A DNA stretch of 51,963 nt from a virus (IMGVR_UViG_3300032770_000028:1-51963), one strand, 5' to 3'. Positions 7,588 to 49,112 are shown, numbered from the stretch's first letter. Numbers and translations are program-made. Notes: generated from the sequence alone by a model not told the origin.

Positions 7588-8490
7588 ATGACAATTACTA
7601 GGGCGCAGTTCCAGATCCTACTGGAGCCCAAGCTTCGGAACATCTGGAACGACGGGTGGCCGCCCCGGCCGCTCGAATACCCCCGCTTCACGAATATCGG
7701 GTCCAGCCGCAAGGCGCAGGAAACCGACTTCAAAATGACGGGGCTCGGGCTGATGGTGAACAAGCCCGAAGGCACCAACATCTCCTACGGCGATCCGATT
7801 CCCGGCTCGACGGTCGTGTATACGCACACCGTCAATGGGCTGGGCTACAAGATCACGGACGAGATGATTCGTCACGAGCTGTATGGGCAGATGGCCAAGA
7901 TGGAGACCTCGCTCATGCGCTCGGCCGTGGACCGGCAGGAGACGGACGCGGCGAACATCCTGAACAACGGTTTCTCCACGGCGGTCACGGGTTTCGCGGC
8001 CGGCGAGTCGTTGTTCTCCACATCCCATGCCCGCCTCGATGGCGGCACGGCGCAGGCCAACCGGCCCAGCACGGACATCTCGCTGGGCGTGACCGCGCTC
8101 CAGAATGGCATCATCCAGTTCCATCTCTGGAAGGACGACCGGGGTCGTCCGTTCCTGTCGATCCCGCGTTTGCTCATCATTCACCCTAACGATCTCATGA
8201 CGGCACGGGAGCTATTGGGCTCGCAGTACAAGCCCGGCACGGCGAACAACGAGATCAACGCCCTGATGGAAGACGGCCTCACGTTCATGGTCAGCCACTA
8301 TGTGACGGACACGAACGCGTGGTATCTGATCGGGGACAACCACGACCTGAACTTCATCTGGGATTTGCGTCCGACGATTGAGATGGACGAGGATTTCGAT
8401 GCGGGCGTGGTGAAGCGGAAGTTGCAGCAGGGCTACTCCTCGGGCTACGGCGAATTCCGGGGAACGTACGGCACGTCGGGGACCACCTGA
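7588..8490 (+). CDS. Major capsid protein (HK97 fold expected)
   Basis: AAGGAG SD; KPEG..I.Y, KDDRGRP..PRLLIIHP, GTANNEINAL; followed by a hairpin. Confidence 0.88.
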   Translation: MTITRAQFQILLEPKLRNIWNDGWPPRPLEYPRFTNIGSSRKAQETDFKMTGLGLMVNKPEGTNISYGDPIPGSTVVYTHTVNGLGYKITDEMIRHELYGQMAKMETSLMRSAVDRQETDAANILNNGFSTAVTGFAAGESLFSTSHARLDGGTAQANRPSTDISLGVTALQNGIIQFHLWKDDRGRPFLSIPRLLIIHPNDLMTARELLGSQYKPGTANNEINALMEDGLTFMVSHYVTDTNAWYLIGDNHDLNFIWDLRPTIEMDEDFDAGVVKRKLQQGYSSGYGEFRGTYGTSGTT

Positions 8491-8510
8491 CGTTGAGTAG
8501 GTGAATGACA

Positions 8511-8540
8511 GGGGCGGGCGTCTTCGGGCGCCCGTCCCTT
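8511..8540 (+). terminator. Hairpin after the MCP (weak terminator or mRNA stabiliser)
   Basis: GGGGCGGGCGTC-TTCG-GGCGCCCGTCCC with a cUUCGg loop and only a TT tail. Confidence 0.6.
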
Positions 8541-8563
8541 CACCCTTGAAAGGAGCAGCATCG

Positions 8564-9016
8564 GTGGCAGCCAATACCGCATACTTGGGTGGCCTGACCA
8601 CGCTGAGTCAGTTGTCGCTTACCGACCCGAGTGGGGCGACGTTGACGGCCAGCGATGGCACGTTTGGCGGGAACGTCACGATTCAGGGCACGCTCACGCA
8701 GGTGGGCGCCGTGACGCAGACGGGGGCGGAGTATCTAGGGGACGGCACGGCGAGCGCGCCCTCGCAGAGCTACGCGAGCGAGAAGAGCCTCGGCTTCTAT
8801 CGCAGCGCGGCGAGCGTGGAGGCGCTTTCGTACGGGTTCTTGCAGGCGCCGTATTTCCTGAGCACGACCACGACCAGCTCTTCGGCTTCGACGCTGGCGC
8901 TGCCGAATAAGCAGGGGATGATCTCGTTCGCGGTGCTGTCGGCGACGAGTGCGCAGTTGCAGTTCCGGTCGGCGAATACGGTTTACGTCTGGAATTGCTC
9001 GTCCTACGCTAGTTAG
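8564..9016 (+). CDS. Ser/Thr-rich virion fibre-like protein
   Basis: AAGGAG SD, GTG 8564; GDGTASAPS...EKSLGFYRS motif shared with 25343-26275. Confidence 0.7.
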   Translation: MAANTAYLGGLTTLSQLSLTDPSGATLTASDGTFGGNVTIQGTLTQVGAVTQTGAEYLGDGTASAPSQSYASEKSLGFYRSAASVEALSYGFLQAPYFLSTTTTSSSASTLALPNKQGMISFAVLSATSAQLQFRSANTVYVWNCSSYAS

Positions 9017-13250: not shown

Positions 13251-13424
13251 ATGACGTGGACAACGGCACCTGTGCCTGCTCCGTACGAGCAGTGGAACAC
13301 GATTACCCCGCAGCCGCCTGTGGGGGATAACAGCGTGCCGTTTGTCTATACGGTAAGCGCGTACCATCCTATCATCTGCACGGCCATCATGCCAGTGGCG
13401 TGCACGAGCGCGGCGGTGCCCTGA
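13251..13424 (+). CDS. 57-aa protein coupled to spike 1
   Basis: Fills the gap exactly; TGATG overlap. Confidence 0.5.
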   Translation: MTWTTAPVPAPYEQWNTITPQPPVGDNSVPFVYTVSAYHPIICTAIMPVACTSAAVP

Positions 13425-14701
13425 TGCCGTGGGTTGAAGGCGATCCCCTCACCCCTGTCAATATGAACGCCAAGATGGCCAGCGCGCCATCTACGGCGGG
13501 TTTCAGTACTAACACCTTGCAGGACGAGGTGGGGGGCACGATCACGTCGCTGGCCAGCGTGCTGATGCCGCAGGGGCTGGTGCTGGTGGACGGGTTCGGG
13601 GCCGTGGGCAATGGCGTAACAGAGGATGGGAACGCCATTTGGGCGGCAGAGAATGCTCGGCAACCGGGGCAGAGCCTGTGGTTCACGCCGACCAAGACGT
13701 ATGCCGTGGGCTCGCTGAGCACGGCCTCGTTGCCGCAGATCACGAAGATCGGCGGCTGGATCGGCGGCGGCACGCTCAAGTACATCGGGGCCAACCAGCT
13801 TAAGACGGGCTCGGACGGCGGCTCGCTCGGGATGGTGAATGTGCGGGTGAGCGGGGCCAATATCGCGCTCACGCTGGACGGCAACAATCTGGTGCGCTAC
13901 CCGGTCACGGTGGAGAGCAGTGCGAGCACGCAGGTGTCGGGCGTAGACCTCAACAACATCCACCAGAACTTGCTTCAGACCAACGGGCAGTGGACAGGCG
14001 TGCATTACGCGACTTCCGTGGACATCACGGGTAGCGCGATTTCCGCGCGGGCTCTGAATGTCAGCGGACGCATCCGGTTGCCGTCGTGCCCGATCATTGA
14101 CCCGAACACGCTGGCCATCGTAGACCAGACTCCGACCATGGCGCATCTCTACGGGAACAATCACCCGCAGGGCAACGGCTCGGGCGTGGCCGTGGCGATC
14201 AGCGACTTGCTGAACATCAGTATGGTGCTGTCCACCATTTCGGGCATCCCGCAATTTGTGGGCAACTTCCAGGATAACTCGCTGCTCGGCAACGTGCAGG
14301 CGCAGGACGTGAACGCCAATGCGTTTGAGGGCTACGGCGTCAGCGCCGCGATCAATAGCCAGTACTCGATTCCCTCGGGCCGCACGCTGAGTTATTTGGC
14401 GCGGAACGGCGTGGGCAGCGGGTGGTTCTACGCCAACGCGGGTTTCGCGGGCACCGGGGCGCCGAACGTGTGGATTGACGCGCGGTCGGCCAAGAGCGAT
14501 GGGCTGATCGAGAACTGGGGCCAGACGGGTAGCCAGCACTGGGTCTCGCTCAAGACTGGCGGGGCGAGCCAGACGAGTAGCAGCCTTGTCACGCAGGGCG
14601 AGTTCCTGTTCAGCATTCTCTCGAACACGACGAATGGCGCGGAGCTGGCGATCCGTTCGGGCAACTCGGTCTGGAAGTTCGCCAGCGTGAGCGTGGGGTG
14701 A
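13424..14701 (+). CDS. Tailspike/fibre 1
   Basis: VDGFGAVGNGVTEDGNAI pectate-lyase-3-like entry motif; W..GDPLT..N.N.K N-terminus. Confidence 0.7.
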   Translation: MPWVEGDPLTPVNMNAKMASAPSTAGFSTNTLQDEVGGTITSLASVLMPQGLVLVDGFGAVGNGVTEDGNAIWAAENARQPGQSLWFTPTKTYAVGSLSTASLPQITKIGGWIGGGTLKYIGANQLKTGSDGGSLGMVNVRVSGANIALTLDGNNLVRYPVTVESSASTQVSGVDLNNIHQNLLQTNGQWTGVHYATSVDITGSAISARALNVSGRIRLPSCPIIDPNTLAIVDQTPTMAHLYGNNHPQGNGSGVAVAISDLLNISMVLSTISGIPQFVGNFQDNSLLGNVQAQDVNANAFEGYGVSAAINSQYSIPSGRTLSYLARNGVGSGWFYANAGFAGTGAPNVWIDARSAKSDGLIENWGQTGSQHWVSLKTGGASQTSSSLVTQGEFLFSILSNTTNGAELAIRSGNSVWKFASVSVG

Positions 14702-16519: not shown

Positions 16520-16975
16520 TTGCAATACTGTAAGGCTGGCCATCCGTTAGATAGCGTTAACGCAAGGGTGCGTTTTCGTCCCGGTCCCCGCAGCGAGGGG
16601 CGCCAGGTCGAATGTCGTGTATGCCAGCGCCTTCGTATGCGTGAATGGAAGCGCAAAAACCCCGAGCGGGCTCGCGCTCAGCAGCGGAAAAGTGCTGCTC
16701 GGCGCAAGGACAAGCACCGCGACTACTCTATCCGTATGCTTTATGGTATAGGCACAGCAGAGTACGATAAGTTGCTTGGGGAACAGGGTGGCGTTTGCGC
16801 CATTTGTCGCCGCAAGAACATTGGCCAACGACGCTTGGGTGTAGATCACAACCACGAAACCAAGAAGATTCGTGGCATTCTTTGCGACCGATGTAATCGG
16901 GGACTTGGGTTCTTTGGGGATCGCGAGGATTTGGTGGCCACGGCCTTGGAGTATCTACGTCAAAAGAACCGCTAG
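16520..16975 (+). CDS. Endonuclease VII-family free-standing nuclease
   Basis: YGI...Y..LL.EQGGVCAIC...VDHNHETKKIRGILCDRCNRGLG. Confidence 0.88.
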   Translation: MQYCKAGHPLDSVNARVRFRPGPRSEGRQVECRVCQRLRMREWKRKNPERARAQQRKSAARRKDKHRDYSIRMLYGIGTAEYDKLLGEQGGVCAICRRKNIGQRRLGVDHNHETKKIRGILCDRCNRGLGFFGDREDLVATALEYLRQKNR

Positions 16976-18840
16976 TCTCGGCGATTCTCACAAGGAACGA
17001 AGCGGGGAGATACCTTGGAGAAATTCTCGCTCGATGCAGCGAGTTTGGGAAGGTGGTTATCCTTGACGACGCCAGCACGGATGCAACGGAGGAGCTGTGT
17101 CGAAGCAACCCGAACGTGGTTGCTTACCGGAAACGCGAGGCGCAGGCTTCCGCCTGGGGCGCCGAATCGAGTGCCAGACGAGAACTCTGGGACTTGGCCG
17201 CCGAGTACGGAGAGTGGGTGCTGTTCTGCGATGCCGACCAGTTGCTCGTCGGCGACCCCCGACCGCTGCTGCAAACCGTAGAAGCCAACGCCATTGCCTA
17301 CATACTCTACGATTGTTGGCACGAGCGCACGCTCTATCGCGACGATGGCTTTTGGCGAGCCCATCTGCATCCTCGTGCCTGGCTGGTCAATCCTCATCGA
17401 GTACCAAGCGACTGGACGCCTCGATGGTCAGACCGTGGTTGTCATTGCGGTCACCTGCCTGAAAACTTCCCCGCGCGGACTCTGGTGGCGCCTCCGGCAA
17501 CGCATTATTGGTTGCATCTCGGCTACGTCAAAGAAGCTGATCGCGCGGCTAAGCTCGAACGATACCACGCTGTCGGAGGGCAATTGACGGATTTCGAGAA
17601 AGCGCACGCCGAGAGCATTGGGGACAAGCACCCGACGCTCCGGCGCCTGCCAACAGAACAGCCGATCCGCGTGCTTGTCGGCGCCCCCACGCGCAAGCGA
17701 GCGGACGTCCTCAAGGCGCACTTGGACTCGCTGGCGTGGCAGGAACTCCCGCCCCGCGTGGAAGTGGAATACTGCTTTATCAACGATTATCCCGAACCTG
17801 ATGTGGGTGAGGTGATTCTGCAACACTTTGTTGCTGATCGTAAGGGTGTGTTACTGACGCCACAAACCAGGCCGCCAGGGAATGACTTCTCCGACAGCGA
17901 CCCCGTTACCCACCGCTGGACCCAGTCGGCGATGGGCCGCGTGGGGGCGATGCGGCAGCAAATCCTGGCCTACGGCGCCTCGCAGGGCTTCGATTACGTG
18001 TGGATGGTGGATACGGACCTCATCTGCGACAAAACGGTGCTAGCGAGCCTCCTGGCGTGCCAGAAGGCCATCGTGAGCGCCGTATACTGGACGCGCTGGG
18101 AGCGCGTGGGCTTGCACGCGGGGCCGCAGGTGTGGCTGGCGCCCGTGTACGAACTGGGCAAGGGGCCGTTCTACCCCGAGTCGGAGTTTCGCAAGCAGTT
18201 GGCAGACCGCGAGTTAGTGCCAGTCGGCGGGCTGGGCGCCTGTACCTTGATTCGGATGGACGCGATCCGCAAGGGCGTGGGCTACACGCGCTGCCCGAAT
18301 TTCCCCACGGGAGGGCTCTGGGATGGCGAGGACCGACACTTCTGCGAGTGGGCCAAACGTCTCCACGTCGAACTCTGGGCCGACGCGTGGCCCGACATCT
18401 TCCACGTCTACCACACCGATGATGTGGCCCGCGTACCGCTTTGGCAAGAGCGGCTGGGAACCGTTCATCCCGCCAAGCCTCGACCTGGCGACCTTATCAG
18501 CCTCCGCCTGCTCGCCGTCGAGAAGCCCATCGGTTACGAGTTCGTACGCACGCTGCTCAGCGGCGATGCGCTCCTACCTGAGCTTGCACAGGCCGTCTCC
18601 GAGATGACGCGAGGCGAGACGCGGATCGTGCGCGTCCATTTCCCCAAGAGTTGGCCGCTGGAGGAAGTGCAGGGCAAGACGCGGCTCATCGAAGTGATGC
18701 TCATTGACTGCAAGCCGCAGGGCGTGGCGCCCGTGCTGGAAGACGAGTTCCACGTGAGCGCGGCCGGGTTTCGCAAGGACGCGATGGACATGACGCAGCA
18801 GCAGTGCGACTTGCTGGGGAGTGAACATGCCAATGTCTAA
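16957..18840 (+). CDS. Tandem GT-A (GT2-like) glycosyltransferase with C-terminal FKBP-like domain; start uncertain (ACG 16957 or GTG 17053)
   Basis: ILTRNEA..ILDDASTD..FCDADQ; second domain MVDTDL..GLGACTLI..GEDRHF; C-terminal MTRGETRIVRVHFPKSW..E.QGK. Confidence 0.8.
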   Translation, partial: TSKEPLVSAILTRNEAGRYLGEILARCSEFGKVVILDDASTDATEELCRSNPNVVAYRKREAQASAWGAESSARRELWDLAAEYGEWVLFCDADQLLVGDPRPLLQTVEANAIAYILYDCWHERTLYRDDGFWRAHLHPRAWLVNPHRVPSDWTPRWSDRGCHCGHLPENFPARTLVAPPATHYWLHLGYVKEADRAAKLERYHAVGGQLTDFEKAHAESIGDKHPTLRRLPTEQPIRVLVGAPTRKRADVLKAHLDSLAWQELPPRVEVEYCFINDYPEPDVGEVILQHFVADRKGVLLTPQTRPPGNDFSDSDPVTHRWTQSAMGRVGAMRQQILAYGASQGFDYVWMVDTDLICDKTVLASLLACQKAIVSAVYWTRWERVGLHAGPQVWLAPVYELGKGPFYPESEFRKQLADRELVPVGGLGACTLIRMDAIRKGVGYTRCPNFPTGGLWDGEDRHFCEWAKRLHVELWADAWPDIFHVYHTDDVARVPLWQERLGTVHPAKPRPGDLISLRLLAVEKPIGYEFVRTLLSGDALLPELAQAVSEMTRGETRIVRVHFPKSWPLEEVQGKTRLIEVMLIDCKPQGVAPVLEDEFHVSAAGFRKDAMDMTQQQCDLLGSEHANV

Positions 18841-19033
18841 GGAAAAGTGTCTTGAGGACGCGCTACGCTATGCCGTGCTCATCATTCAGAGTTACGAGTC
18901 TGATATACGTAATTCGGATTGGGTGGGCATAGACCTTGTCAAGCGCGGGTTCTGCCAAGGCGATATTTATCGGGGCGCGCTCAAAATGATTGAGCGCCTG
19001 TCTGAACCAGACAGGGTCACATTGCATGGCTGA
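18827..19033 (+). CDS. Small hypothetical protein
   Basis: GGGGAG SD; overlaps both neighbouring GT genes; more AT-rich. Confidence 0.55.
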   Translation: MPMSKEKCLEDALRYAVLIIQSYESDIRNSDWVGIDLVKRGFCQGDIYRGALKMIERLSEPDRVTLHG

Positions 19034-19859
19034 CCAGCAAGTGCAAGTGCCGCCGGGTTGCGTGTTTCTGACCACGTACGGCTTGCTCAGGCACGAGACA
19101 CACCGCTGCATCATGGAAATGCGCAGCCATTGCGAGAAGAACGGGCTCTTCAACATCGCGTGGGAATCCATTCCCGGCATGCTCGTGGACATGGCGCGCA
19201 ACCAAGCCGTAGCCACGATGCTCAGCAAGCCCCCGCTCCAGTGGCTGCTGTTCGTCGATGGGGACGCCACGTTCCAACCCGACGCGCTCATGCGCCTGCT
19301 GCTCTTTGCCTACCGCGACATGCCGAGCGCGGACATTGTGGGCGCGTACAATCCCTTGCGTTCTTCGCCGCACTTGCCGACCATCGATACCGGCACCGGC
19401 ACGTGGGAATCTCATCTGCCGATGAGCGGCCCGATGGAAGTGATGCGCACGGGTAGCGCGTTTGTTTTGCTCAAGCGTCATGTGTTCGAGCGCATCCCCG
19501 GCCCATGGTATGGGGTTAAGAACATGATGCGCCCGATTGACGCGCTGGCCGAAACAGATACGTTTGCGAGAACGAAGTTCGATGGCCGGAACCCCTTGGC
19601 GAACACGCCGGAGTGGCAAGCGTTGTTGAAGTGCGCCAAAGAGGAACAGTCCACGTTTGCACCGCCCGATCCGGTGAGTTTTGTCGGGGAAGATAGCGGT
19701 TGCCTCGATAAGGCTATGTTTGCCGGATGCTCCGCGTGGGTCTTGACAGACGTGGTATGCGGCCACGTGGCTGACAGAATTATCACAGCGGCAGATCATC
19801 GTCGGGCGCTTGGTGAGAACGCACTCAGGCGCAGGCAACTTGTAGGGATAACCCGGTGA
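19026..19859 (+). CDS. GT-A fold glycosyltransferase
   Basis: ARNQAV..WLLFVDGD..TGSAFVLLKRHVF..GED..CGH. Confidence 0.78.
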   Translation: MADQQVQVPPGCVFLTTYGLLRHETHRCIMEMRSHCEKNGLFNIAWESIPGMLVDMARNQAVATMLSKPPLQWLLFVDGDATFQPDALMRLLLFAYRDMPSADIVGAYNPLRSSPHLPTIDTGTGTWESHLPMSGPMEVMRTGSAFVLLKRHVFERIPGPWYGVKNMMRPIDALAETDTFARTKFDGRNPLANTPEWQALLKCAKEEQSTFAPPDPVSFVGEDSGCLDKAMFAGCSAWVLTDVVCGHVADRIITAADHRRALGENALRRRQLVGITR

Positions 19860-20494
19860 AATCTTGCTCTCAGTGTTTCCGCGAACTTGATGAGAGTTGC
19901 TTTCCTCGTATCAAGGCACGGGGCAACCGCGCCGGTTCGTGGTGCAGAGAGTGTTGCGCCAAAAAGAGTGGCGAGTCTTACCGTGCCCACAAAGAGCGTG
20001 CGGCAAAATGGAGCAGAGAATATCGGAAAACGCATGCCGCAGAGATTCGCGAGCGCAATAAACGGTACTACGCTGAAGGGGCAGCAGAACAAATAGCCAA
20101 AGCAGTTGCATGGGCGCGTGCCCACCCAGAACGTCGGCGTGCCACGCGTGCCAAGTGGGCCGCTGCGCATCCCGATCTGGACAAGAAGGCCAAGGTCGAG
20201 TGGAAGCGTCGAAATCCCGACAAGTTAGCCGAGGAGTCAGCACGTCGTCGGGCCAGGAAGCTTAACGCTCCGATCAATGATTTGAGTGGGCGGGTGTGGC
20301 CACTAGTGCAAGCGGTGTTCCGCAACCGTTGCGTATACTGTGGCGAGACGAAGAAACTGACACGCGACCATGTTCAGGCGCTGACCAGGGGCGGCGATCA
20401 CTCGTTGCACAACATTGCCCCGGCGTGCCAATCGTGTAATTCGCGGAAGCACAATGGCCCCGCGCCGACTTTCTGGTGGAAGCGGCGTGTCTAG
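19856..20494 (+). CDS. HNH endonuclease
   Basis: CVYC..TRDHVQALTRGGDHSLHNIAPACQSCNSRK. Confidence 0.9.
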   Translation: MKSCSQCFRELDESCFPRIKARGNRAGSWCRECCAKKSGESYRAHKERAAKWSREYRKTHAAEIRERNKRYYAEGAAEQIAKAVAWARAHPERRRATRAKWAAAHPDLDKKAKVEWKRRNPDKLAEESARRRARKLNAPINDLSGRVWPLVQAVFRNRCVYCGETKKLTRDHVQALTRGGDHSLHNIAPACQSCNSRKHNGPAPTFWWKRRV

Positions 20495-21414: not shown

Positions 21415-22002
21415 ATGCCCATTACGTGGAACGAAGCCTCTCCCGCTGATACCGACGGCGCCGGCACGGCCGCCAGCGCTCTGCGGTCCCTCAAGGCCAA
21501 TCTCGCTACTGGACTCGCCACGTCCGTGTACTGGCCGGGCAGCGGCGGGGCGTCGGCGGCCAGCGCAGGTTGGCCCAAGATCGGGACGGCACGGCCCCTG
21601 TATGGTACGCAGTCGCAGGTGAGTGCCTATGCCGATGCCTTCCTGATGCTCACCAGTGATACCAGCCGCCTGTTCGCCGTGAACAGCGCTTCCACGGTGT
21701 TCCTCGGGGGCTCGCGGGTGATTGAGTCCTCGACCACGTCGATGGCCGTGAACACGCACTACATCCTGGCGACGGGCCAGCTTCAGAACAGCGTGGTGGG
21801 CGGGTACGGCGTCACGTTCACGCAGGCCCCGGCGCTCATTCTTCAGAACACGGGCGTGAGCGGGTCGGCCACCGCGATCATTCGGGGCGCTCCGTCGGCT
21901 ACCACCTTCATCTTTGATGCCTGGATGCTCGGTTCTAGCTTCACCGCCACGGCATCCACCATCACCTTCACGTACCTGGCCTACGGCCCCGTGAGTTTCT
22001 AG
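21415..22002 (+). CDS. Short tail fibre-like protein, paralog 1
   Basis: WNE..P.D.D...A.RSL...WPGSGG.S.ASAGWP N-terminus; Ser/Thr-rich. Confidence 0.6.
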   Translation: MPITWNEASPADTDGAGTAASALRSLKANLATGLATSVYWPGSGGASAASAGWPKIGTARPLYGTQSQVSAYADAFLMLTSDTSRLFAVNSASTVFLGGSRVIESSTTSMAVNTHYILATGQLQNSVVGGYGVTFTQAPALILQNTGVSGSATAIIRGAPSATTFIFDAWMLGSSFTATASTITFTYLAYGPVSF

Positions 22003-22003
22003 C

Positions 22004-22663
22004 ATGGCCATCGGCTGGAACGAGTTGCTGCCGAACGACAGCGATTTCTACGCGGGCGACGCCTCGGCCGTACGGAGTCTTGAAACGTCGTTCGCGCAGG
22101 GCATCAGCAACGCGCTGATGTGGCCGGGGAGCGGCGGCAGGAGTTCGGCAAGCGCGGGCTGGCCGCAGTTCGGATTCGGCAGCCGTCCGTGCCTGGACGT
22201 ACAAAGTAACCTCTCCTCCACGGTGTCGGCCTCGCTGATGCTGTCACTGGACTCGGCGTTCACGAGTTCCTCTACGTTCACGATGCGTCTCTGGGACACG
22301 TCCTCCGTCACCACGCAGGTGGTCGGGGGGCGCCTCGCCGTGGAGCACTACTGGCTCCAAGACGGCACCTTCTCGCTGGTCACGGAGGCCGGTCCCCCCA
22401 AGGGCACGCGCTGGGTGATGAGCGGGGGCACGGTCTCGGCCAGCAGCGCGGCGGTGTTCGGTGTCACCTACGGGGCGCCACCGCGCGTGTGGGGAACCGG
22501 GCAGGCTTCGACGTTCCCCGGCGGGATGGAGGAATCGGCGGTGTCGCTCTCGGGCATCACCACGGGTGGCTGCTACACGAACATCGTGTACTGGAACGGG
22601 AGTTCGGAGAATTTGCTGGTGGGCGTGGTGCACTGGCTGAGTCTCGGCACGGTGGCGTTCTGA
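22004..22663 (+). CDS. Short tail fibre-like protein, paralog 2
   Basis: Same N-terminal block as the upstream gene. Confidence 0.6.
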   Translation: MAIGWNELLPNDSDFYAGDASAVRSLETSFAQGISNALMWPGSGGRSSASAGWPQFGFGSRPCLDVQSNLSSTVSASLMLSLDSAFTSSSTFTMRLWDTSSVTTQVVGGRLAVEHYWLQDGTFSLVTEAGPPKGTRWVMSGGTVSASSAAVFGVTYGAPPRVWGTGQASTFPGGMEESAVSLSGITTGGCYTNIVYWNGSSENLLVGVVHWLSLGTVAF

Positions 22664-25012: not shown

Positions 25013-25346
25013 CCCTGGCGCGCAGCGCATCGAGACGCCGCCTTCCACGGTGTCGGCCGATCTTTACGGCTGGCTCACACGGCTCGCGCTGGCCGTGAAC
25101 AACTTGCCAGCCATCAGTTACACGTCCTACGCCTCGCCGGAATCGAACGTCACGGGAGCGCCGGGCGACGTGCTGATTAACTTGGCGGCCGATAGTGGGG
25201 CGACCCGCGTGTGGTACAAGCAATCGGGGGCGACCAATACGCATTGGACAGGTATCGGTGCAGGTGGTGGGGGCACGGGGCCTAGCGGTGCGACAGGAGC
25301 AAGCAACTTGACGATTGCCTATGTAGCAGCGTGGTGTGGCGTATGA
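25002..25346 (+). CDS. Small tail-associated protein
   Basis: SPESNVTGAPGDVLIN...WYKQSG..NTHW motif of a type seen in fibre/spike modules. Confidence 0.55.
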   Translation: MANSPGAQRIETPPSTVSADLYGWLTRLALAVNNLPAISYTSYASPESNVTGAPGDVLINLAADSGATRVWYKQSGATNTHWTGIGAGGGGTGPSGATGASNLTIAYVAAWCGV

Positions 25347-26275
25347 TTGTTCTCGACGCCACAACGAAAGCCGTGGAGGTGGTGCTGTCGGCCGCCAAGG
25401 GTGCGAATGATATGGGGGCCTCGGCTTCTTATGCCGACACCAGCGCCATCACCTTCACCCCCGGTAGCTCGCAGGCTTCGACCAATGGCACGTCTGTGGT
25501 CACGCTCGTTACGGCTCCGGCTTCGGGCTACCAGCGGGTCGTGAAGGCCCTCACCGTATACAATCAAGACACCTCGTCGAATACGGTGACGGTGCGCATC
25601 AACTCCAACGGCACCCTGTATAACCAGACTGTGGTGAACCTGGCGGTGGGCGACACGCTGGAGTACAGCGAGACGTTTGGCTGGAAGGTGTTGGCCACGA
25701 CCGGCTACATCAAGAACTCGGCGGGCCTGACGAGTGTACTGGGTACAGCCAATCAAGTCACGCTGACGACGGCTAGCGGCGTGGCGACGGCAAGTTTGCC
25801 GAGTACGTTGACGGTGCCCGGCACGCTCCAGACTACGGGCATTTTCTGCACGCCCGATGGCACTGCCTCGGCGCCGAGCGATACGTTTACCAGCGAGCAG
25901 TCGCTCGGGTTCTATCGGTCGGGCGCGTCGGCCATTGCACAGTCCTACGGCCAGTTGCTGTCGGGAGACGGCACGGCGTCGTTGCCCCCGGATGCCTACT
26001 TGAGCGAGAAGTCGCTGGGTTTCTACCGTTCGGCCAGCAGCATCCAGCGCCTGAGTTACGGTACGTTGGATGCCAGTGCGGGCGGGTTCCTGTTCAAGAA
26101 CCTGGCGATGACCACGGCTACATCGAGTACGACAACCAGTTTCAGCGGCACCACGGCCAAGGTGGCCGATGGGACACTGTATTTCAGCGTGCTGTCGCTG
26201 ACTACGAATGGAGCGGAGTTCGGGTTCCGGTCGGGGCGTACCGTGTATCGGTTCGCGTCCGTGGGTGCCGGATGA
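25343..26275 (+). CDS. Ser/Thr-rich tail fibre-like protein
   Basis: ATGA overlap; two DGTAS.P....SE.SLGFYRS repeats. Confidence 0.68.
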   Translation: MIVLDATTKAVEVVLSAAKGANDMGASASYADTSAITFTPGSSQASTNGTSVVTLVTAPASGYQRVVKALTVYNQDTSSNTVTVRINSNGTLYNQTVVNLAVGDTLEYSETFGWKVLATTGYIKNSAGLTSVLGTANQVTLTTASGVATASLPSTLTVPGTLQTTGIFCTPDGTASAPSDTFTSEQSLGFYRSGASAIAQSYGQLLSGDGTASLPPDAYLSEKSLGFYRSASSIQRLSYGTLDASAGGFLFKNLAMTTATSSTTTSFSGTTAKVADGTLYFSVLSLTTNGAEFGFRSGRTVYRFASVGAG

Positions 26276-27414: not shown

Positions 27415-28466
27415 CGCGGTTCCGCTGGGGGCCGGAAGACAAGCGCGCCGTGCTGGAGGCGGCGGTTGAACTCGGCAATGACCGCGTGGCGATTGCCCAC
27501 CGCGTGGGCTGCACGTACAAGCAACTGGACAACTTCATTCCCGACATCCGCGACGAGTACAAGGCCGCCATCGACGCGTTCTATGCCCGGCAGCGGGCGT
27601 TACGTGAGGTGCCTGGGGCGCTTCCCCCCGCCGCCAGTGAGCAGACCGTACGCCCGTTTGCCGTGCCTATTCCCGCTCCGGCCCAGCGCCGCGAAGGCGA
27701 GTTGCTGAAAGCTGTAGTGTTCAGCGACTCTCACATACCGTACCAAGATGACGGCGCGCTGGCGTGTGTGGAAGCCGTGATCCAAGATGCCAAACCCGAC
27801 ATCTTGGTACATCTGGGCGACCTCATTGATGCCGGGGAACTCAGCGAGAAATTCCCGGTTGACCCGCGACGGCTTGGTACGCTCCAGCAAGACATTGACT
27901 TTGCCAGAACGAAGTTGCATCAATGGGCGCAACTGGCACCGCAGGCCGAGCGGTGGATTTTGGAAGGCAATCACGAGTCGAGACTTCAACGGGCCATCTG
28001 GCGGCTTCAAGGGCCGGCGCGCGAGATAGCCAGGCTCGATACGTTCTATGAGAAACTGTCGTGGCCTGAACTGTTGCAACTCAAGGACATCGGGTGGAAG
28101 TGGATTGGTTATCGTGAGCAACCGGGCCGGAGCGTGTTACCAAAACTGCTGGTCAAGCATGGCGATATAGTTTCCCAATGGGCCGGGTTCACGGCCAAGC
28201 GCGAGTGGATGGCCAGCGGCCGGAGCGGCATCAGCGGGCACACACATCGGGCGGTCCCGTGGCCCCATACGGACGACAACGGCGTGGCGCGCTGGATTGA
28301 GGACGGGTGTACCTGTCGCTACGATATTCCATGGGCCACGCACACGGACTGGCAGCAGGCTGTAACCATTCTTACGTGGAATGCCGACCGCTATCTGATG
28401 GACGTGGAGATGCCCTTCATCCGTAACGGGCAACTGCTGTGGCGGGACAAGGTGTATGGCCGATAA
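27411..28466 (+). CDS. Calcineurin-like metallophosphoesterase with N-terminal HTH
   Basis: SDSH, GDLID, GNHE, KHGD, GHTH; GTGA overlap. Confidence 0.88.
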   Translation: MTRFRWGPEDKRAVLEAAVELGNDRVAIAHRVGCTYKQLDNFIPDIRDEYKAAIDAFYARQRALREVPGALPPAASEQTVRPFAVPIPAPAQRREGELLKAVVFSDSHIPYQDDGALACVEAVIQDAKPDILVHLGDLIDAGELSEKFPVDPRRLGTLQQDIDFARTKLHQWAQLAPQAERWILEGNHESRLQRAIWRLQGPAREIARLDTFYEKLSWPELLQLKDIGWKWIGYREQPGRSVLPKLLVKHGDIVSQWAGFTAKREWMASGRSGISGHTHRAVPWPHTDDNGVARWIEDGCTCRYDIPWATHTDWQQAVTILTWNADRYLMDVEMPFIRNGQLLWRDKVYGR

Positions 28467-28989
28467 GCTCCCGTTGGTTGAGCGCAAACGCATTGCTCGT
28501 GCCAAGTGGCGCAAGGCGCATCCCGAGCGCTATCGGGAATTGTGGGAACGTTATCGGGCCGAGAATCCAGAGAAGTGCCGTGCTACTGAGGCCAGGTATC
28601 GGCGTGAAAACCGCGAGCGGTGCAACGAAGCAATTCGCCGTTGGCGAGCTGCGCACCCCGATAAGAAGCGCGAGGAGTCTCGGCGTTATGCTCAGGCGCA
28701 TCGAGATCGTCTGCGCTTTGCCGCAGCCAAGCGCAATGCCCTGAAGTTGTCTGCGCCAGGAACACTTACTTGGCAAGACTGGCAGGACATTCTTGCTGCA
28801 TCGTTGGGGTTCTGTACGTATTGTGGGCGACCCAAGAAGCTGACCATGGATCACATTGAGCCGCTATCCCGAGGTGGCTGGCACGATGCCAGCAACATTG
28901 TAGCGGCGTGCCAGAACTGTAATTCATCCAAGAACCAGGCGACGCTTATCGTGTGGCTGGCAAGGCGTAGGAGGAGACAGGTTGCATGA
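28456..28989 (+). CDS. HNH endonuclease
   Basis: CTYC..TMDHIEPLSRGGWHDASNIVAACQNCNSSK. Confidence 0.9.
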   Translation: MADKLPLVERKRIARAKWRKAHPERYRELWERYRAENPEKCRATEARYRRENRERCNEAIRRWRAAHPDKKREESRRYAQAHRDRLRFAAAKRNALKLSAPGTLTWQDWQDILAASLGFCTYCGRPKKLTMDHIEPLSRGGWHDASNIVAACQNCNSSKNQATLIVWLARRRRRQVA

Positions 28990-29993: not shown

Positions 29994-30959
29994 ATGAGAA
30001 TCCTCGTTAGCGGGTCGTGCGGGTTCATTGGGAGCCACGTTGTAGACCGCCTGCTCGCTGCGCATCACGAAGTGCTGGGCGTGGACTGTCTGGAGCCGCG
30101 CGTGCACCCGGAGCAGATGAAGCCCGCGTGGTGGCCCGACTCCGTCGAACTGCGAGTCTGCCATGCCGACGCCATCACCTACACGGACTTGGCCGAGACC
30201 GAGTGCTTGATTCACTTGGCCGCGCAGGTAGGCGTGGCCGACTCGATGGCCGACCCCGACCGCTACATCCGAGGCAACACCGTCGAGACCACGCAGCTCC
30301 TGCGCAACTTGGAGCAGGCGATGGCGCGCGGGAACTTGAAGCGGCTCGTCGTGGCCAGCAGCATGAGCGTGTACGGGGCAGGCGGCCACCTCGTGCCCGA
30401 GTCCGCGCCCTGCGTGCCTGCGTCCGTCTATGGCCTCACCAAGTACGACCAAGAGCGCCTCTGCCTGATGTGGGGCGCGCAGCACCGCGTGGAGACCGTG
30501 GCCCTGCGGTTCTTCAACGTGTACGGGCCCCGGCAAGCGCTCACGAATCCCTACACGGGCGTGCTGGCCAACTTCGCACAGGCGCTCTTGGCGGGGCAGC
30601 CGCCCATCGTCTACGAGGACGGCGGGCAGACGCGGGACTTCGTGTACGTGGCGGACGTGGCGGATGCCGTCGTGCGCACGGCCACGATGGCGGGCCCCAT
30701 CTTCGGGGCGTACAACGTGTGCACGGGTTGGCCAACCAGCATCCTGACCGCCGCCCGCACGCTGGGTCTCGCACTCGGTCGCCCCGACATCGAGCCTCGC
30801 ATCACCAACACGCAGCGCGAAGGCGACATCCGTGACTGCACGGGCTCGCCCGATCTCTTTGCCAAGCGGACGGGCTGGCGCTCGCGCTGGATGTTCCGCA
30901 CGGGCATTGAGGCTTACGCCAGCTGGTTGCTATCCTTCGACCGTTGGTTGATCGCGTGA
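29994..30959 (+). CDS. NAD-dependent nucleotide-sugar epimerase/dehydratase (extended SDR)
   Basis: SGSCGFIG, ASSMSVYG, YGLTK, RFFNVYGP, NPYTGV, RDFVYV. Confidence 0.92.
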   Translation: MRILVSGSCGFIGSHVVDRLLAAHHEVLGVDCLEPRVHPEQMKPAWWPDSVELRVCHADAITYTDLAETECLIHLAAQVGVADSMADPDRYIRGNTVETTQLLRNLEQAMARGNLKRLVVASSMSVYGAGGHLVPESAPCVPASVYGLTKYDQERLCLMWGAQHRVETVALRFFNVYGPRQALTNPYTGVLANFAQALLAGQPPIVYEDGGQTRDFVYVADVADAVVRTATMAGPIFGAYNVCTGWPTSILTAARTLGLALGRPDIEPRITNTQREGDIRDCTGSPDLFAKRTGWRSRWMFRTGIEAYASWLLSFDRWLIA

Positions 30960-31096
30960 CGGTCGCCGCGCGCAAGGCATTAGCCGACTTGGACGAAGCC
31001 CTGCTGCGCTCGCCCCTCAAGAGCGTGGCCGGGCACTGGGCACTGGTACTCATCCGGTTCGAGCGATTGGAGCAGGCGCTCCGGGGGAATCCGTGA
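30956..31096 (+). CDS. 46-aa hypothetical protein
   Basis: GTGA overlaps at both ends. Confidence 0.5.
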   Translation: MTVAARKALADLDEALLRSPLKSVAGHWALVLIRFERLEQALRGNP

Positions 31097-31629
31097 CCGA
31101 CTTGGATGCCTACCGCAGCGGCAGCGCGGAGCCGTGGACCGTGGACGTACTGTGTGCGCTGATTCGGGCGAAGAAACCCCACGTACTGATCGAGACCGGC
31201 ACGTTCGAGGGCCGTACCTCCATCGCCATGTTCCACGCCATGGAAGCCTACGCGAGCCAGCACGGAGCGCTGCTCTGGACGCTGGAGAACGACCGCGAGC
31301 GCATCCTGCGGGCCTTTGAGCGCATCAAGCCCATCACGACCGACACCTATAGCGGCGTGAATCTGATCGAGTGCGATGCATTGGAATGGCTGCGCGGTCG
31401 CCCGGACAATTTCTGCGACTTCGTGTTTCTGGATGACGACCACACGGCAGCTCACGTAGGGCTGGAACTGGACGAGTGCCTGCGCATCGTCCGGCCCGGC
31501 GGGCTCATCTGCGGGCACGACGTGGTGGGGCCATTCGGACTCGACATTGAGTTCAAGAAGCGCGGGGGCGTGGTGCTGGAGTTCGAGCGCCTGCACGCGG
31601 CGGGCGGACTGGGGCTACTGACTAAGTGA
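31093..31629 (+). CDS. Class I SAM-dependent (O-)methyltransferase, Methyltransf_24-like
   Basis: LIETGTFEGRTS..DFVFLDDDH..PGGLICGHD. Confidence 0.85.
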   Translation: MTDLDAYRSGSAEPWTVDVLCALIRAKKPHVLIETGTFEGRTSIAMFHAMEAYASQHGALLWTLENDRERILRAFERIKPITTDTYSGVNLIECDALEWLRGRPDNFCDFVFLDDDHTAAHVGLELDECLRIVRPGGLICGHDVVGPFGLDIEFKKRGGVVLEFERLHAAGGLGLLTK

Positions 31630-33994: not shown

Positions 33995-36900
33995 ATGCCA
34001 GTGTCCAGTGCCGTGACAGGCGGCAGCGTTCTCGATCAGGTCTACGGAACGCCTGCGCGCTCTGCCCTAGACCAAGTGTATGGAAGCCCAGACCCGTTTG
34101 CGTCTCTCCATTCACCCTCTACGCCATTGCCGCCAGGATGGGCGATTGGCGAAAGCCCGTTGGCCGCCCAACTCCACCCCACACCACCTACGGCCCATCG
34201 GGCAATTGAAGGCGCTGCCACTACTGACCAGCCTATCCGACTCTCCGGCACCGCAGGAACCAGCCTGGAGCATCAACTCTTTGGTTCCTTTGAAGGCGTG
34301 GCCCAAACCGTGATGGACTTGCCCGCAATGGCCGAAGGCGCCACCCGGCACTTCGCCCGCCTCGCCGGCTCCAGCGGGCTCCCCGGCGCCAATAACCTCG
34401 GTTACGTGCCCTCCACGCCCGAGGAACTCCAGGACGAGGCCCATGCCCAGACGGCGACCGCCCTAGCCGCCTCCGTGGCCGTAGGAGGCCCGCTCGGGCG
34501 CTTGGCCGAGTCCGTACTGCCCGAGGCCGCGCTCGCAGGTTCTGGAGGCGTCCAGACGCTCCTACGGGGATTGGGGAACGTGGTCAAGGGGTTTGCCCAC
34601 GGGGCCACCATCGGGACCGTGTACGGGGCCCTGCGCCCCACCCGGCCGGATGAGACCCGGCTGGATGCCGTGACGAAGGACGCGCTGGGGTTTGGCGGCT
34701 TTGAGGCGGCGGCCGTGGGACTCATTGGCGCCGCGACCACGCTGGCCCAGCGGCGCTTCCCTTCGCCCACCGCGCAGAATCTTGCACGCGCCTCGGATGC
34801 CGTGTTCCCGCGTGTCACGGAACGCCAAGTCCCGATGTGGGATAACGACGGGATGTATGTGGTGGGCCAGATGCCGGATGGGCGGTTCCGGGCCGTGGGC
34901 GGGACGCGCATCAATACGCCGCGTGGGTTCGGGATAGGGACCACGCCCGCCGAGGCCATTGCCAACGTGAAGGGTTTGCCTGAGACGCCGCACGAGATCC
35001 CGACGGGCACCGTGTCAGAGACGGGCGCGGGCGTCTCGCTTACACCCTTGAATTCCCCGCCCAATCCCGAGTTCACGGGGCTCTTCGGCCGCATGCGCTA
35101 CTTCTCGCAGGTGGCGTTCGGCGATCTGTTTGCGGACGTGCGGAAGGCAGGCTTCGACCGCGCCCATGCCGCGCTCAGTCAGGCCGCCGCGAGCCAGATG
35201 GCCACGGGCTACACGGGCCTGATGGTCAAGGACTTCTCCGGCATCGCGCGGCTGAGTATCGATGACCGCACATTGCTCGGGGACTGGTTCAACGCCCGCG
35301 AGGGCGCGCGGCTGCGCGGCAGGCTCGACGCCCAGATTGCCAGCACCACGGACCCGAACGAACTGACACGACTTCAATCCGCCCGCGAGGCCGTGCGCAT
35401 TCCCGAATTGACGCAGGCCCAGCAACAGCAATTCGCGGCCCGCAGCGCCGCGCTCCAGCCCATCGTCAAGTGGCTAGACGAACGGCTTCAGCCGATGCTC
35501 GAAGCGCACAAGCTCCAGACGGGTCTCTCGCTCGGCCAGTTCCACGCGGCCGATCTGGAAGCACCCGTGCTCTCGCTGGTGCCGAAGTTTGAGACGGCCG
35601 AGGCCACCGAGGCTGCGACCGTCACGGGCGTGCCCGCCGTGCCAGCGGGCGCAGGCTCCATCCCGTCTCGTTATCGCGCGCTCAAGACTTCGGCCGCGCT
35701 GGGCCGCACGGGCACCGGCACGTACGAGAACGACATCTCCACGATGGTGGATAGCTGGCTGCACGACGTGATGCCCAAGACCACGCGCCGGGCCATGATG
35801 GAGGAAATCACCAAGTCGCCCGGCGTCCGGCAACTGGGCGAGCGCGAGCGACCCGATCCCGGCATGGTGACGTTGCCCTTCCAGGCCGCCGACTTGAAGT
35901 CGCTGGGCGCGGACGTGAACGGGCGCTGGCAAGTGCCGCCCGTCTTGAAAAACGCCTACGACAAGCTGGCCACGCGGGACGTGTTCTTCCGCAGCGCAAC
36001 AGGCAACCGGGCCGTGGGGCTCTTGGACTTGGCCACCCAGCTCCAACTGGCGGCGCCCGTGGAGGCAAGCTCGCACGCGTGGCGCATGGTCAGCGGGCTC
36101 GCGGGTGTGCCGGGCGTGGGGAACGAGATCGCCAAGGGTTGGGGGCGCGCCATCAATCTGTTCCCCTCGCTGGGGCCCAAGGGCACGGCCATTGCCTCGA
36201 TGGTGCACGTGGGCAGCGACCCGGCCGCGATGGCGGAAGGCATCTCCTACTTGGCCCGCATTGGTGCCTTGTCGGGCCGCCCGCTGGCCGAGGAGGCCGG
36301 GCAGGGCATGGTGGCTGCCTTGCGGCGCGGCGTGCCACTGCTGGATGCCATGCCCAAGTTCTTGTTCGGCATGCCGCAGTTCGGGCCGGGGCTCGCGGGC
36401 TGGGACACGCGCGTGCGGCTCATGGCGTTGCAGGCAGTGCGGCAGTTCGCCAAGGACGCGGGCCACGACGCCACGGATGCGGAAGTGAGACAATTCGTGA
36501 ACGGAATGGCCGGTACCTACGGCACCCAGATGCAGACCAACACGCTGGCCTTGCTGCGTAAGAGCCGCCTCTGGGCGTTCGGTTCCTACCAGTCCAGCGC
36601 CATTCCCCGCGAGGCCGAGCGGATGGCGGGCCCGTTCCTGCCGGGCGTGAGCGGGGGCACAGGGCTCCCGATGAGCATCTGGGGCAACCTGCCCAAGAGC
36701 CGCCAGCTTCTCTTGCGAGCGGAGACCGCGTGGCGGGGCGTGGTGGGAGATGCCGTGGTAAGATCGGCCATCACGAAAGCTTCGACGGGCTACTGGCCGT
36801 GGGACCCGCAGCACTTGAACTGGGGCGATCCCACGAAGATCGGCATCGGCGCCACCGGGACAGGCGATGACCAGAAGTTCGTCTATGCGCGCGGGAATAT

Positions 36901-48047: not shown

Positions 48048-49112
48048 TTATGGGGCAAATTGCGCCAGTACGTTGGCTATCCGCTCGCCTGCGTGGCCGT
48101 CGCCGAACACGTTGGAGGGCTCGATGCGCATGGAGAGCGCTTGGGAGATGGATGTCGCGACGCTGTCGCTAGTGCGGCCGGCCAGGATGGCGAGTTTGGC
48201 CTCGACGGCTTCTTGGCGTTCGGTGCGGTCGCGGGCTATCGCGGACGGGACTCCGAGCGTAGAAGCTTCTTCGACCACGCCGCCAGAGTCGGTGAGTACG
48301 GCGCGAGAGGTGGCGAGCAGGCGCACGAAGGGCAGGTAGTTCATCGGCGACACGCGGTGCACATTCGCAGGTACCGTGGCCAAGTTAATTATCGGGCCCA
48401 CGTTAGGGTTTGGGTGCATGGGCCAGAGGAACTCGGTGGCCGGGTGCTGAATGGCCGCGCGGATCAGACCGGAGACGATGCGCTGGAGCGGCGCGCCGAA
48501 GGATTCACGGCGGTGGAGCGTGACGAGCACGCGGTTTTCGTGCTCGCCGAGGCGGGCGGGCCGGATACCGGCCTGGACGAGCGCGTCCACGACCGGGTTG
48601 CCGACGAGGGCAATCAGGGCGCGTTTGGCGTAGGAGCGCATGGAGCGCAAGTTGGCAGCGGCCAAGGGCGTAGGGGCGAACAGGAGCTGGGCCCGGCGGT
48701 CGAGTTCCGTGCGAAACCGCTCCTCGGGCCAGGGGTCTTGGAGGTCAAACGAGCGGAGCCCGGCCTCGACGTGGGCCAGCGGGATGCCCCTAGAACGCGC
48801 GTAGCGCCCGCCAGCTACGCTGGAGGCCGTGTCCCCCTGCACGATGACGCCCGCGAGGGGATCGGGCCCCACAGAGGCGCCTAGCGCGCCCAGGGCCGTC
48901 TCGACGTAGGCCAGCGGGTCGTTGGCGCTCACGCAGCCCAGCGCCTCGACCGGGAACTCGTCGGCGAAGCCCGTCTGGGCGAAAAGCCCCGTGTGCTGGC
49001 CCGTGACCACCACGCGGAACGGGAGGTCGCGGGCCTTCATTGCCCGGAGCACGGGGGCCATTTTAATTCCCTCGGGACGAGTCCCGATTACCACCAACCA
49101 CGGCTTCGTCAT
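48048..49112 (-). CDS. wecB: UDP-N-acetylglucosamine 2-epimerase (non-hydrolysing)
   Basis: GTRPEGIK, TGQH, QGDT, HVEAGLRS, PWPEE, TLHRRE, TDSGG..EEA, FGDG. Confidence 0.93.
   Translation of the reverse strand: MTKPWLVVIGTRPEGIKMAPVLRAMKARDLPFRVVVTGQHTGLFAQTGFADEFPVEALGCVSANDPLAYVETALGALGASVGPDPLAGVIVQGDTASSVAGGRYARSRGIPLAHVEAGLRSFDLQDPWPEERFRTELDRRAQLLFAPTPLAAANLRSMRSYAKRALIALVGNPVVDALVQAGIRPARLGEHENRVLVTLHRRESFGAPLQRIVSGLIRAAIQHPATEFLWPMHPNPNVGPIINLATVPANVHRVSPMNYLPFVRLLATSRAVLTDSGGVVEEASTLGVPSAIARDRTERQEAVEAKLAILAGRTSDSVATSISQALSMRIEPSNVFGDGHAGERIANVLAQFAP

Follow-up and report, generated by a model that had tools for sequence, protein, structure and literature searches.

A tailed-phage protein uniting two glycosyltransferase domains with a trigger-factor-type FKBP domain, and its predicted docking of a neighbouring transferase

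The DNA stretch IMGVR_UViG_3300032770_000028:1-51963 (hereafter the window) is the complete record of an uncultured virus, 51,963 bp in length and flanked by direct terminal repeats. It belongs to a tailed phage, as it encodes a large terminase, a portal, a major capsid protein, virion structural proteins and a GH108 endolysin. We studied a gene on its plus strand (16957..18840, 627 codons plus stop), whose product comprises two glycosyltransferase (GT) domains of the GT-A type and a C-terminal FKBP domain resembling the peptidyl-prolyl isomerase (PPIase) domain of trigger factor. This GT-GT-FKBP architecture, which had been put forward in an initial annotation made from the sequence alone, was confirmed by Pfam, by a profile match to COLGALT1, by AlphaFold2 (AF2) models and by comparisons with Foldseek and VIA-align. 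We propose that the FKBP domain is a docking module tethering the C-terminal tail of GT3, a third glycosyltransferase encoded directly downstream, and that the resulting three-transferase assembly probably glycosylates virion proteins. We give this proposal a probability of roughly 0.45. The architecture, the fold, the descent from trigger factor and the regular presence of GT3 beside the domain were established computationally, whereas the contact between the pocket and the tail comes from a model only. The component parts are of known kinds; what is new is how they are combined and what the pocket is predicted to be used for.

The FKBP domain was located at 18463..18726 (residues 503-590) by AF2, Foldseek, VIA-align, profile searches and hhalign. 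An AF2 model of the last 146 amino acids based on a 115-row alignment (predicted local distance difference test, pLDDT, 93.6) predicted with high confidence that the C-terminus adopts the FKBP fold (a five-stranded antiparallel sheet around a short helix) expected in the initial annotation. Foldseek searches of the PDB with this model placed trigger factor 1t11 first (E 4e-5), and all 16 matches at E <=1e-3 were of the FKBP type. VIA-align, run against 48,161 chains, reported 31 chains at Z >=8, and each of the 33 rows listed at Z >=8.0 was FKBP-type, including SlyD (Z 11.6, root-mean-square deviation (rmsd) 2.0 over 81 amino acids), E. coli trigger factor (Z 11.1, rmsd 2.6 over 87 amino acids) and the PPIase domain of M. 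genitalium trigger factor (Z 10.6). The matches covered model residues 22-108, which correspond to 18463-18726. At the level of Pfam families, the 146-residue C-terminus did not reach the cut-off of FKBP_C (PF00254; 13.0 bits, E 0.14, cut-off 21.1), and a scan of the whole 627-residue protein gave no FKBP_C match at E <=0.01. The peptide quoted in the initial annotation indeed starts with PRPGDLISL at 18478, but its end, LIEVML, lies at 18702 and not at about 18714.

Sequence profiles allowed us to assign the domain to a particular type of FKBP. In a search of PDB sequences with a 13-sequence profile, trigger factors (8e-6, 9.4e-6, 9.5e-6 and 2.6e-5) scored ahead of generic FKBPs (2.8e-4), and the trigger factor match extended past the PPIase domain into ELPELTAEF. 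The same profile yielded 1283 matches at E <=1e-3 among 1.84 billion proteins (representatives of clusters at 50% identity). Most of the 81 matches at E <=1e-10 were members or fragments of the GT-linked family itself, while the nearest ones outside it (best 1.1e-12) were proteins of about 430 amino acids aligned at residues ~150-280. Five of these proteins were checked and all contained Trigger_N, FKBP_C and Trigger_C. When 26 trigger factors were compared by hhalign (99.1%, E 1.6e-18, 130 columns), query columns 12-143 were aligned to trigger factor positions 148-282, a span that takes in the linker preceding the PPIase domain, the PPIase domain and the start of the C-domain. The likeness to the trigger factor FKBP domain noted at the outset was thereby corroborated (PDB profile, hhalign, VIA-align and the Foldseek match to 1t11) and greatly exceeds what chance would produce. 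Since the profile and hhalign matches include the flanking segments, we regard the module as a fragment captured from a trigger factor gene. Judged by these alignments, it is specifically from trigger factor that the FKBP domain derives, and the linker as well as the first C-domain helix came with it.

The flanks of the domain are in agreement with this origin. A helix and linker at 18415..18462 (plus strand; helix 487-500 in the model) are homologous, according to hhalign, to the trigger factor segment preceding the PPIase domain. The C-terminal tail APVLEDEF... (18727..18837, plus strand) is homologous to LPELDDEFA, with which the C-terminal domain of trigger factor begins, and conserved at P592 (111/116) and E597 (92/110). 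This homology of linker, FKBP domain and helix start holds for the trigger factors of E. coli (1w26/2mlx/1l1p), V. cholerae (1t11) and M. genitalium (1hxv), with which the phage domain has in common a G-D-x-V strand, a P-x-(F/L)-E helix, an FP motif and L-x-D-x-K. Nevertheless, lacking Trigger_N and the body of Trigger_C, the protein does not qualify as a trigger factor. A Pfam scan of the 627 residues identified neither the ribosome-binding Trigger_N (GFRxGxxP), whose G-F-R-x-G is invariant in all 26 true trigger factors, nor Trigger_C (~160 amino acids); only some 35 residues follow the FKBP domain, and in the alignment these fall on the first C-domain helix of trigger factor. Further differences from trigger factor are a mostly aliphatic pocket, one shortened loop, an invariant arginine (Arg531), the fusion to glycosyltransferases and the encoding by a phage.

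A protein search for relatives gave 224 matches among 8000 scored candidates. The family alignment used below has 119 rows and consists of the window and 118 of 120 listed homologues, P0004 (the window's own gene call) and P0034 being omitted. The FKBP region was covered by all 119 rows, though those of low identity (P0106, P0112, P0114, P0117) are possibly forced alignments. Both GT domains and FKBP were present in 42 rows, only the second GT domain and FKBP in the other 77. This split indicates that domain 2 and FKBP form the conserved unit, domain 1 being either fused to it or separately encoded (as in locus L029). With 81 profile matches at E <=1e-10 and the FKBP domain in every aligned homologue, the family is more than an isolated case. 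FKBP-less proteins more distantly related to the GT core were detected at 15 viral loci and at 25 loci of a genome collection, mostly from Bacillota. The only FKBP-bearing contig of that collection (7.3 kb, binned in a metagenome-assembled genome of Krumholzibacteriia) resembles a phage fragment and was not used as host evidence. The viral structure library BFVD contained no protein of the same architecture (TMq <=0.32). The ESM Atlas provided no usable match to residues 490-627 and, for the whole protein, nothing beyond generic clusters of the GT2/Anp1 kind (score <=0.90). The main texts covered by full-text literature searches nowhere described an FKBP or trigger factor domain joined to a glycosyltransferase.

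We then mapped the ligand pocket through the hhalign alignment with trigger factor and counted the residues in the 119 rows, taking Tyr26, Phe36, Phe46, Trp59, Tyr82 and Phe99 of FKBP12 as the reference positions. Tyr26 is represented by Leu518 (Leu 71, Ile 29 in this column) and Phe46 by Val530 (Val 74), while the loop of Phe36 is deleted or variable. Position 543, the equivalent of Trp59 (Phe198 in trigger factor), is Leu in 59, Ile in 38 and Val in 18 rows, and position 578, the equivalent of Phe99 (trigger factor Phe233), is Ile in 38, Leu in 23, Val in 20 and Phe in 18. Of the six canonical positions only 566, which corresponds to Tyr82 (trigger factor Tyr221), is mostly aromatic (Tyr 57, Trp 19, His 13; Tyr/Trp/His in 89/117). 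Thus, the pocket remains hydrophobic though largely de-aromatised. In view of these exchanges of aromatic for aliphatic residues, a canonical prolyl isomerase activity of the domain is doubtful.

The docking proposal originates from the gene following the one under study. GT3 (19026..19859, plus strand) is a GT-A-like glycosyltransferase of 277 amino acids assigned to PHROG 1574, with a DxD motif in FVDGDATF. Its profile had 0 matches to PDB sequences at E <=1, and an hhalign comparison with the GT family reached no more than 42.6%, in the region of the DxD motif. GT3 lies directly downstream in 16/16 FKBP-bearing related loci (L001-L010, L013, L014, L029, L061, L063, L068), and it was found in 0/40 FKBP-less relatives within the flanks fetched. 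Conversely, a reverse search starting from GT3 led to 15 viral loci, 15 of which possess an FKBP-bearing GT gene upstream. Because of this co-occurrence, the two proteins were chosen for a complex prediction. Residues 210-627 together with GT3 scored 0.67 (runs 0.60, 0.67 and 0.70), while the best of three controls scored 0.00. In the calibration, the mark was reached by 58/80 solved complexes and by 2/110 mismatched pairs, counts that hold only roughly here because custom unpaired alignments were used for the prediction. At least 90% of the contacts agreed between the runs, and the pLDDT of the partner was at least 81. On the enzyme, confident contacts were made by residues 518-520, 523, 525, 528, 530, 532, 537-540, 543, 560, 562, 566-568, 570-571 and 578, i.e., by the FKBP pocket including the positions mapped to the ligand pocket of FKBP and trigger factor, and additionally by residues 404-406. 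GT3 contributed residues 254-256, 259 and its last ten residues (268-277). This tail, RRRQLVGITR (19827..19856, plus strand), was predicted to sit in the FKBP pocket and carries the C-terminal motif R-x-x-x-G-hydrophobic-x-x, in which the fourth residue from the end is Gly in 14/17 sequences. The model supports binding of the GT3 tail in the pocket, but does not show it.

Arg531 is invariant in 119/119 rows, has no counterpart in trigger factor and is located outside the predicted GT3 interface, whereas its neighbours 530 and 532 are inside. This pattern fits a strand whose side chains alternate between the pocket and the body of the enzyme. The arginine probably faces the GT body and would also suit a structural role, as would the compact full-length model (predicted TM-score, pTM, 0.92). 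In its original context the PPIase domain of trigger factor is a real isomerase. One might regard the phage domain either as an active prolyl isomerase or chaperone for the folding of fibres or capsids, or as an inert buttress, in both cases lacking a specific peptide ligand. We consider this improbable. An isomerase is hard to reconcile with Leu, Val, Leu/Ile/Val and Ile/Leu at the equivalents of Tyr26, Phe46, Trp59 and Phe99 and with the deleted or variable Phe36 loop, and an inert domain with a conserved hydrophobic pocket, a conserved GT3 tail and a complex prediction that passed. The suggestion of a peptide-binding or PPIase-like module in the initial annotation has therefore to be divided: a peptide-binding pocket agrees with the controlled complex prediction, while the PPIase part is questionable owing to the lost aromatic residues.

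Alternatively, the pocket may hold the acceptor polypeptide, for example a stretch of a virion protein that is unfolded or contains proline, and present it to the active sites of the GT domains. Substrate-presenting accessory modules are exemplified by the lectin domain of polypeptide GalNAc-transferases (ppGalNAc-transferases) and the tetratricopeptide repeat (TPR) domain of OGT, and ppGalNAc-T2, a GT-A enzyme with an accessory binding domain, was among our Foldseek matches. This function would be in line with the homology to the trigger factor PPIase domain, with the structural match to 2mlx (trigger factor with unfolded PhoA, Z 11.1), with the preserved hydrophobicity of the pocket and its modelling as peptide-binding in the complex prediction, and with the closest relatives of both GT domains being protein or peptide glycosyltransferases. 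On the other hand, a candidate acceptor segment was not found. Collagen-like repeats (G-x-y)5 were absent from 39 translated genes, the richness in Ser/Thr is spread across many structural proteins and thus generic, and the C-terminal tail of the major capsid protein (7588-8490), although conserved in 10 relatives as [YW]G[ST][SQ]G plus 0-3 residues, is uninformative, nothing linking it to glycosylation. Moreover, the one tested ligand fitting the pocket is the GT3 tail, and a generic holder would not need the strict co-occurrence with GT3. We therefore rate substrate holding as possible but rather unlikely, bearing in mind that docking and substrate holding are not wholly exclusive. The initial annotation had envisaged a protein glycosyltransferase which holds polypeptide substrates; its protein acceptor is plausible in the light of the relatives SunS, ThuS-like, GmaR and COLGALT1, but the only ligand favoured by our data is the tail of GT3. 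A combination of both functions is conceivable but likewise improbable: the module may keep a chaperone-like role, its pocket binding in turn the GT3 tail, which would serve as placeholder or tether, and new virion proteins in their unfolded parts, with glycosylation preceding folding and assembly.

In the docking proposal, the gene, with its captured part of a bacterial trigger factor gene (PPIase domain, linker and first C-domain helix), encodes a soluble, compact three-domain enzyme with two probably active GT-A domains and the FKBP domain. The hydrophobic, de-aromatised pocket would serve as a peptide receptor clamping the GT3 tail R-x-x-x-G-hydrophobic-x-x-COOH, and the tethered GT3 would add a third catalytic domain. 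Together with an epimerase/dehydratase, a UDP-GlcNAc 2-epimerase and a methyltransferase of the phage, the three-transferase assembly may then, in the late phase of infection, equip virion proteins with a short glycan that is possibly methylated. Catalytic activity, protein acceptor and virion target are all points that we infer, the last of them because of the relatives of the GT domains, the position of the genes in the structural module and the precedent of mycobacteriophages described below.

The first GT-A domain (16957..17571, plus strand, residues ~1-205) is of the GT2 type. It passed the Pfam cut-offs of PF13704 (residues 10-101; 5.8e-9, 36.8 bits, cut-off 27.5) and PF00535 (2.6e-8, 34.4 bits, cut-off 23.3). 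The nucleotide-binding motif ILDDASTD (17059-17082, residue 35) and the DxD motif CDADQ (17227-17241, residue 91) are both kept in the full-length homologues. Its closest solved sequences were ThuS-like 7msk (1.5e-6), SunS (7msp, 2.7e-6; 7msn, 3.8e-6) and GmaR (22ao, 3.3e-5). The second GT-A domain (17662..18414, plus strand, residues ~236-486) alone remained under the Pfam cut-off (PF00535, E 0.0063, 16.9 bits), but is related to Anp1 and to the N-terminal (GT1) domain of COLGALT1, to which a 115-sequence family profile matched in the PDB with E 3.1e-12. The likeness resides in chain residues ~10-160 of COLGALT1. PF01755, the catalytic domain Glyco_transf_25 of family GT25, was absent from the Pfam hits of the whole protein and from residues 210-498 at E <=10. 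The AF2 model of domain 2 exhibited a GT-A fold with a DxD motif and matched COLGALT1, LH3 and Mnn9 by Foldseek. Its DxD motif (VDTDL) lies at 18007-18021 and a GEDRHF motif at 18325-18342. Residues D352, D354, E458, D459 and R460 as well as a run of Trp/Tyr are invariant in the 119 sequences.

The full-length AF2 model was compact (pLDDT 95.4) with two Rossmann-type domains, and no strongly hydrophobic segment was found in the 627 residues. Foldseek listed enzymes with two GT-A domains first, namely PmHS2 (P. multocida heparosan synthase 2; 8vh7, 1.7e-13), LH3, COLGALT1, the E. coli K4 chondroitin polymerase K4CP (2z86, 4.8e-10) and mimivirus R699, with Mnn9 and GalNAc-T2 coming after them. 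As TM-scores did not exceed 0.34, the domain arrangement of the phage protein is its own. PmHS2 and K4CP, which gave the best Foldseek E-values, also have two GT-A domains per chain, but differ in their arrangement (TM 0.22, rmsd ~21 Å), polymerise polysaccharides and lack an FKBP domain.

Comparison with known enzymes makes a protein acceptor plausible, since SunS/ThuS-like proteins, GmaR and COLGALT1 are the closest relatives. SunS/ThuS and Listeria GmaR are GT2 enzymes acting on peptides or proteins, in which a GT-A catalytic domain is combined with an accessory domain as in the phage protein. However, they have a single GT domain and are similar only across the first ~100 residues, and their accessory domains are helical or TPR-like, not FKBP. 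The polypeptide GalNAc-transferases of family GT27 (T2, T4 and T12; Foldseek 2.4e-8 and weaker) follow the same logic of a GT-A domain with a C-terminal binding module. In these eukaryotic Golgi enzymes the module is a ricin-type lectin binding glycopeptides instead of FKBP, and the kinship is confined to the GT-A fold. COLGALT1/GLT25D1 and LH3/PLOD3 carry GT-A domains in tandem and have proteins as acceptors, and phage domain 2 matches the GT1 domain of COLGALT1, which itself differs in overall domain arrangement (TM <=0.34) and has no FKBP domain. COLGALT1 and LH3 operate jointly within a multi-enzyme complex (PDB 8zgc; PMC11897130). The GT1 domain of COLGALT1 binds Ca2+ and UDP-Gal (PMC12003778). 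In contrast to this domain, phage domain 2 keeps DxD and GEDR invariant, and from the retained DxD motif we assume that it is probably active, unlike its non-catalytic counterpart in COLGALT1.

In mycobacteriophages, the phages' own transferases (Che8 gp110, Corndog gp38) glycosylate capsid and tail tube proteins (PMC12363180, PMC11256854). The genes of these transferases lie elsewhere in the genome, and the proteins are not reported to carry an FKBP domain. A tblastn search of 50,697 phage records with the 627-residue protein produced a single weak match, to Caudovirales GX15bay (28% identity, with 33% of the query covered), and none to a mycobacteriophage.

Independently of the relation between FKBP and GT3, the transferases could modify a target other than protein, either a precursor of a host envelope glycopolymer or hypermodified DNA bases. 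Prophage-encoded TarP, for instance, acts on wall teichoic acid. The structural neighbours PmHS2 and K4CP are polysaccharide synthases, and the many invariant aromatic residues of domain 2 are typical of sugar-binding subsites. Phage GT-A enzymes that glycosylate 5-hydroxymethylcytosine DNA are known as well (bioRxiv 10.1101/2023.12.21.572611). A non-protein target nonetheless seems unlikely to us. Without an integrase, none being found among the open reading frames scanned, a lasting conversion of the host surface would have no obvious benefit; besides, the protein is free of strongly hydrophobic segments and the genes sit in the structural module. DNA hypermodification in particular is unlikely, for the complete genome contains neither a thymidylate-synthase-type hydroxymethylase (PF00303; positive control matched in 10/14 genomes) nor a C5 DNA methyltransferase (PF00145; positive control matched in 9/14 genomes). 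The search for Tet_JBP (PF12851) carries no weight, as its positive control was matched in no genome.

Two Ser/Thr-rich paralogues (21415-22002 and 22004-22663; 26% and 24% Ser+Thr) lie just after the GT cassette, are conserved in 6/12 related contigs and begin with a common motif, WNE..P.D.D...A.RSL. They are possible candidates for glycosylation targets.

The 5' end of the GT-GT-FKBP gene is unusual. On the plus strand, the reading frame begins to be open at 16897 and runs up to the stop codon at 18838-18840, and translation from 16957 gives the 627 amino acids. The start at 16957 proposed in the initial annotation agrees with the homologues, the N-termini of the full-length ones aligning to 16957-16960, but the codon there is ACG, not a canonical start codon. 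The earliest in-frame ATG, GTG or TTG is the GTG at 17053. Within 16897-17055 the frame offers just two further near-cognate codons, the ATT triplets at 16984 and 17026. A Shine-Dalgarno-like GGAG (16948..16951, plus strand), read directly from the sequence, precedes codon 16957 by 5 nt. The Pfam GT2 match starts as early as residue 10 of this reading, and in the full-length AF2 model strand 4-12 and helix 20-30 belong to the first Rossmann domain, from which a start at GTG 17053 would delete both. The gene call of the sequence collection at this locus (P0004) comprises just 418 amino acids. The ACG is as assembled: of four sequencing runs compared, only the probable source run (one contig, depth 56) covers 16957, and being identical to the window it offers no independent confirmation. 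Upstream, the gene overlaps at its 5' end with an endonuclease VII gene (16520..16975, plus strand; PF02945, 1.1e-21; PHROG endonuclease VII), which ends within the GT frame and has no counterpart at that place in the relatives. By eye, no X XXY YYZ slippery site for a -1 frameshift from endonuclease VII into the GT frame was discernible in 16897-16975.

A number of points weigh against the proposal that a GT3-tethering enzyme glycosylates virion proteins. The contact between pocket and tail is a structure prediction and not a measurement. The co-occurrence with GT3 is confounded by ancestry, the FKBP-bearing loci being largely one syntenic phage lineage, and thirteen pocket/tail pairs varied by clade only, which makes them inseparable from phylogeny. 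Some FKBP-less loci are short contigs whose downstream gene may have been cut off. As the gene has no canonical start, the full-length protein is itself putative. Among the structural proteins examined no acceptor turned up, and the many invariant Trp/Tyr residues of domain 2 would equally suit a glycan acceptor. Finally, the COLGALT1 domain resembling domain 2 is the non-catalytic one (PMC12003778).

Glycosyltransferases acting on proteins usually need an accessory module, be it a lectin, TPR repeats or a carrier; here this module is a trigger factor domain. If the contact between pocket and tail is true, an FKBP pocket has been re-used as a receptor for the C-terminus of a partner enzyme, which would be a simple, transplantable route to multi-step glycosylation machines and a clean case of a phage repurposing a host chaperone domain. 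Should the pocket alternate between tail and virion segments, the phage, whose host is probably Gram-negative, would possess a chaperone-coupled protein glycosylation machine. If virion proteins are the target, self-glycosylation of phages extends past mycobacteriophages, with a bearing on their recognition by hosts and immune systems.

The genomic surroundings were compared with those in 12 related viral contigs, in which the GT-GT-FKBP gene keeps its place: a pair of virion structural genes and fibre genes that vary come before it, while GT3, a large virion structural gene, an epimerase/dehydratase gene and a methyltransferase gene come after it in this order. The window contains the NAD-dependent sugar-nucleotide epimerase/dehydratase at 29994..30959 (plus strand; PF01370, 8.8e-48; PHROG 540) and the methyltransferase at 31093..31629 (plus strand; PF13578), both syntenic with the GT genes in the relatives. 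A UDP-N-acetylglucosamine 2-epimerase is encoded on the minus strand at 48051..49112 (PF02350, 1.2e-68). Directly after GT3 lies an HNH endonuclease gene (19856..20494, plus strand; PF01844, 1.1e-10), which is missing at this place in the relatives. Since the endonuclease genes flanking the GT genes are absent there in the 12 related contigs, they resemble insertions of homing endonucleases. Altogether four endonuclease VII/HNH genes are scattered across the late region (1174-1707, 16520-16975, 19856-20494 and 28456-28989).

Some further observations were made in passing. On the chromosome of Neobacillus cucumis (L036:6049-7644), a GT-core relative without FKBP shows a swapped Pfam order (Anp1-like at 16-159, GT2 at 305-446); it is neighboured by a GT2, a GT2-TPR protein and a repetitive, coiled-coil-like protein of 1146 amino acids. 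Two proteins from the profile search of the 1.84 billion representatives, P0198 (1250 amino acids) and P0209 (940 amino acids), are of the flagellar hook FlgE type with two or three FKBP_C domains inserted between D1 and D2. In the window, an open reading frame for 1194 amino acids (33995-37579) had no Pfam or PHROG match. The products of 8501-9016, 13400-14701 and 25331-26275 share the module DGTASxPS...SE(K/Q)SLGFYRS...SYG, present twice in the 25331 product, and a similar C-terminal end (...NGAE...RSG..V..FASV); by their sequences, these modules suggest exchangeable fibre or decoration units.

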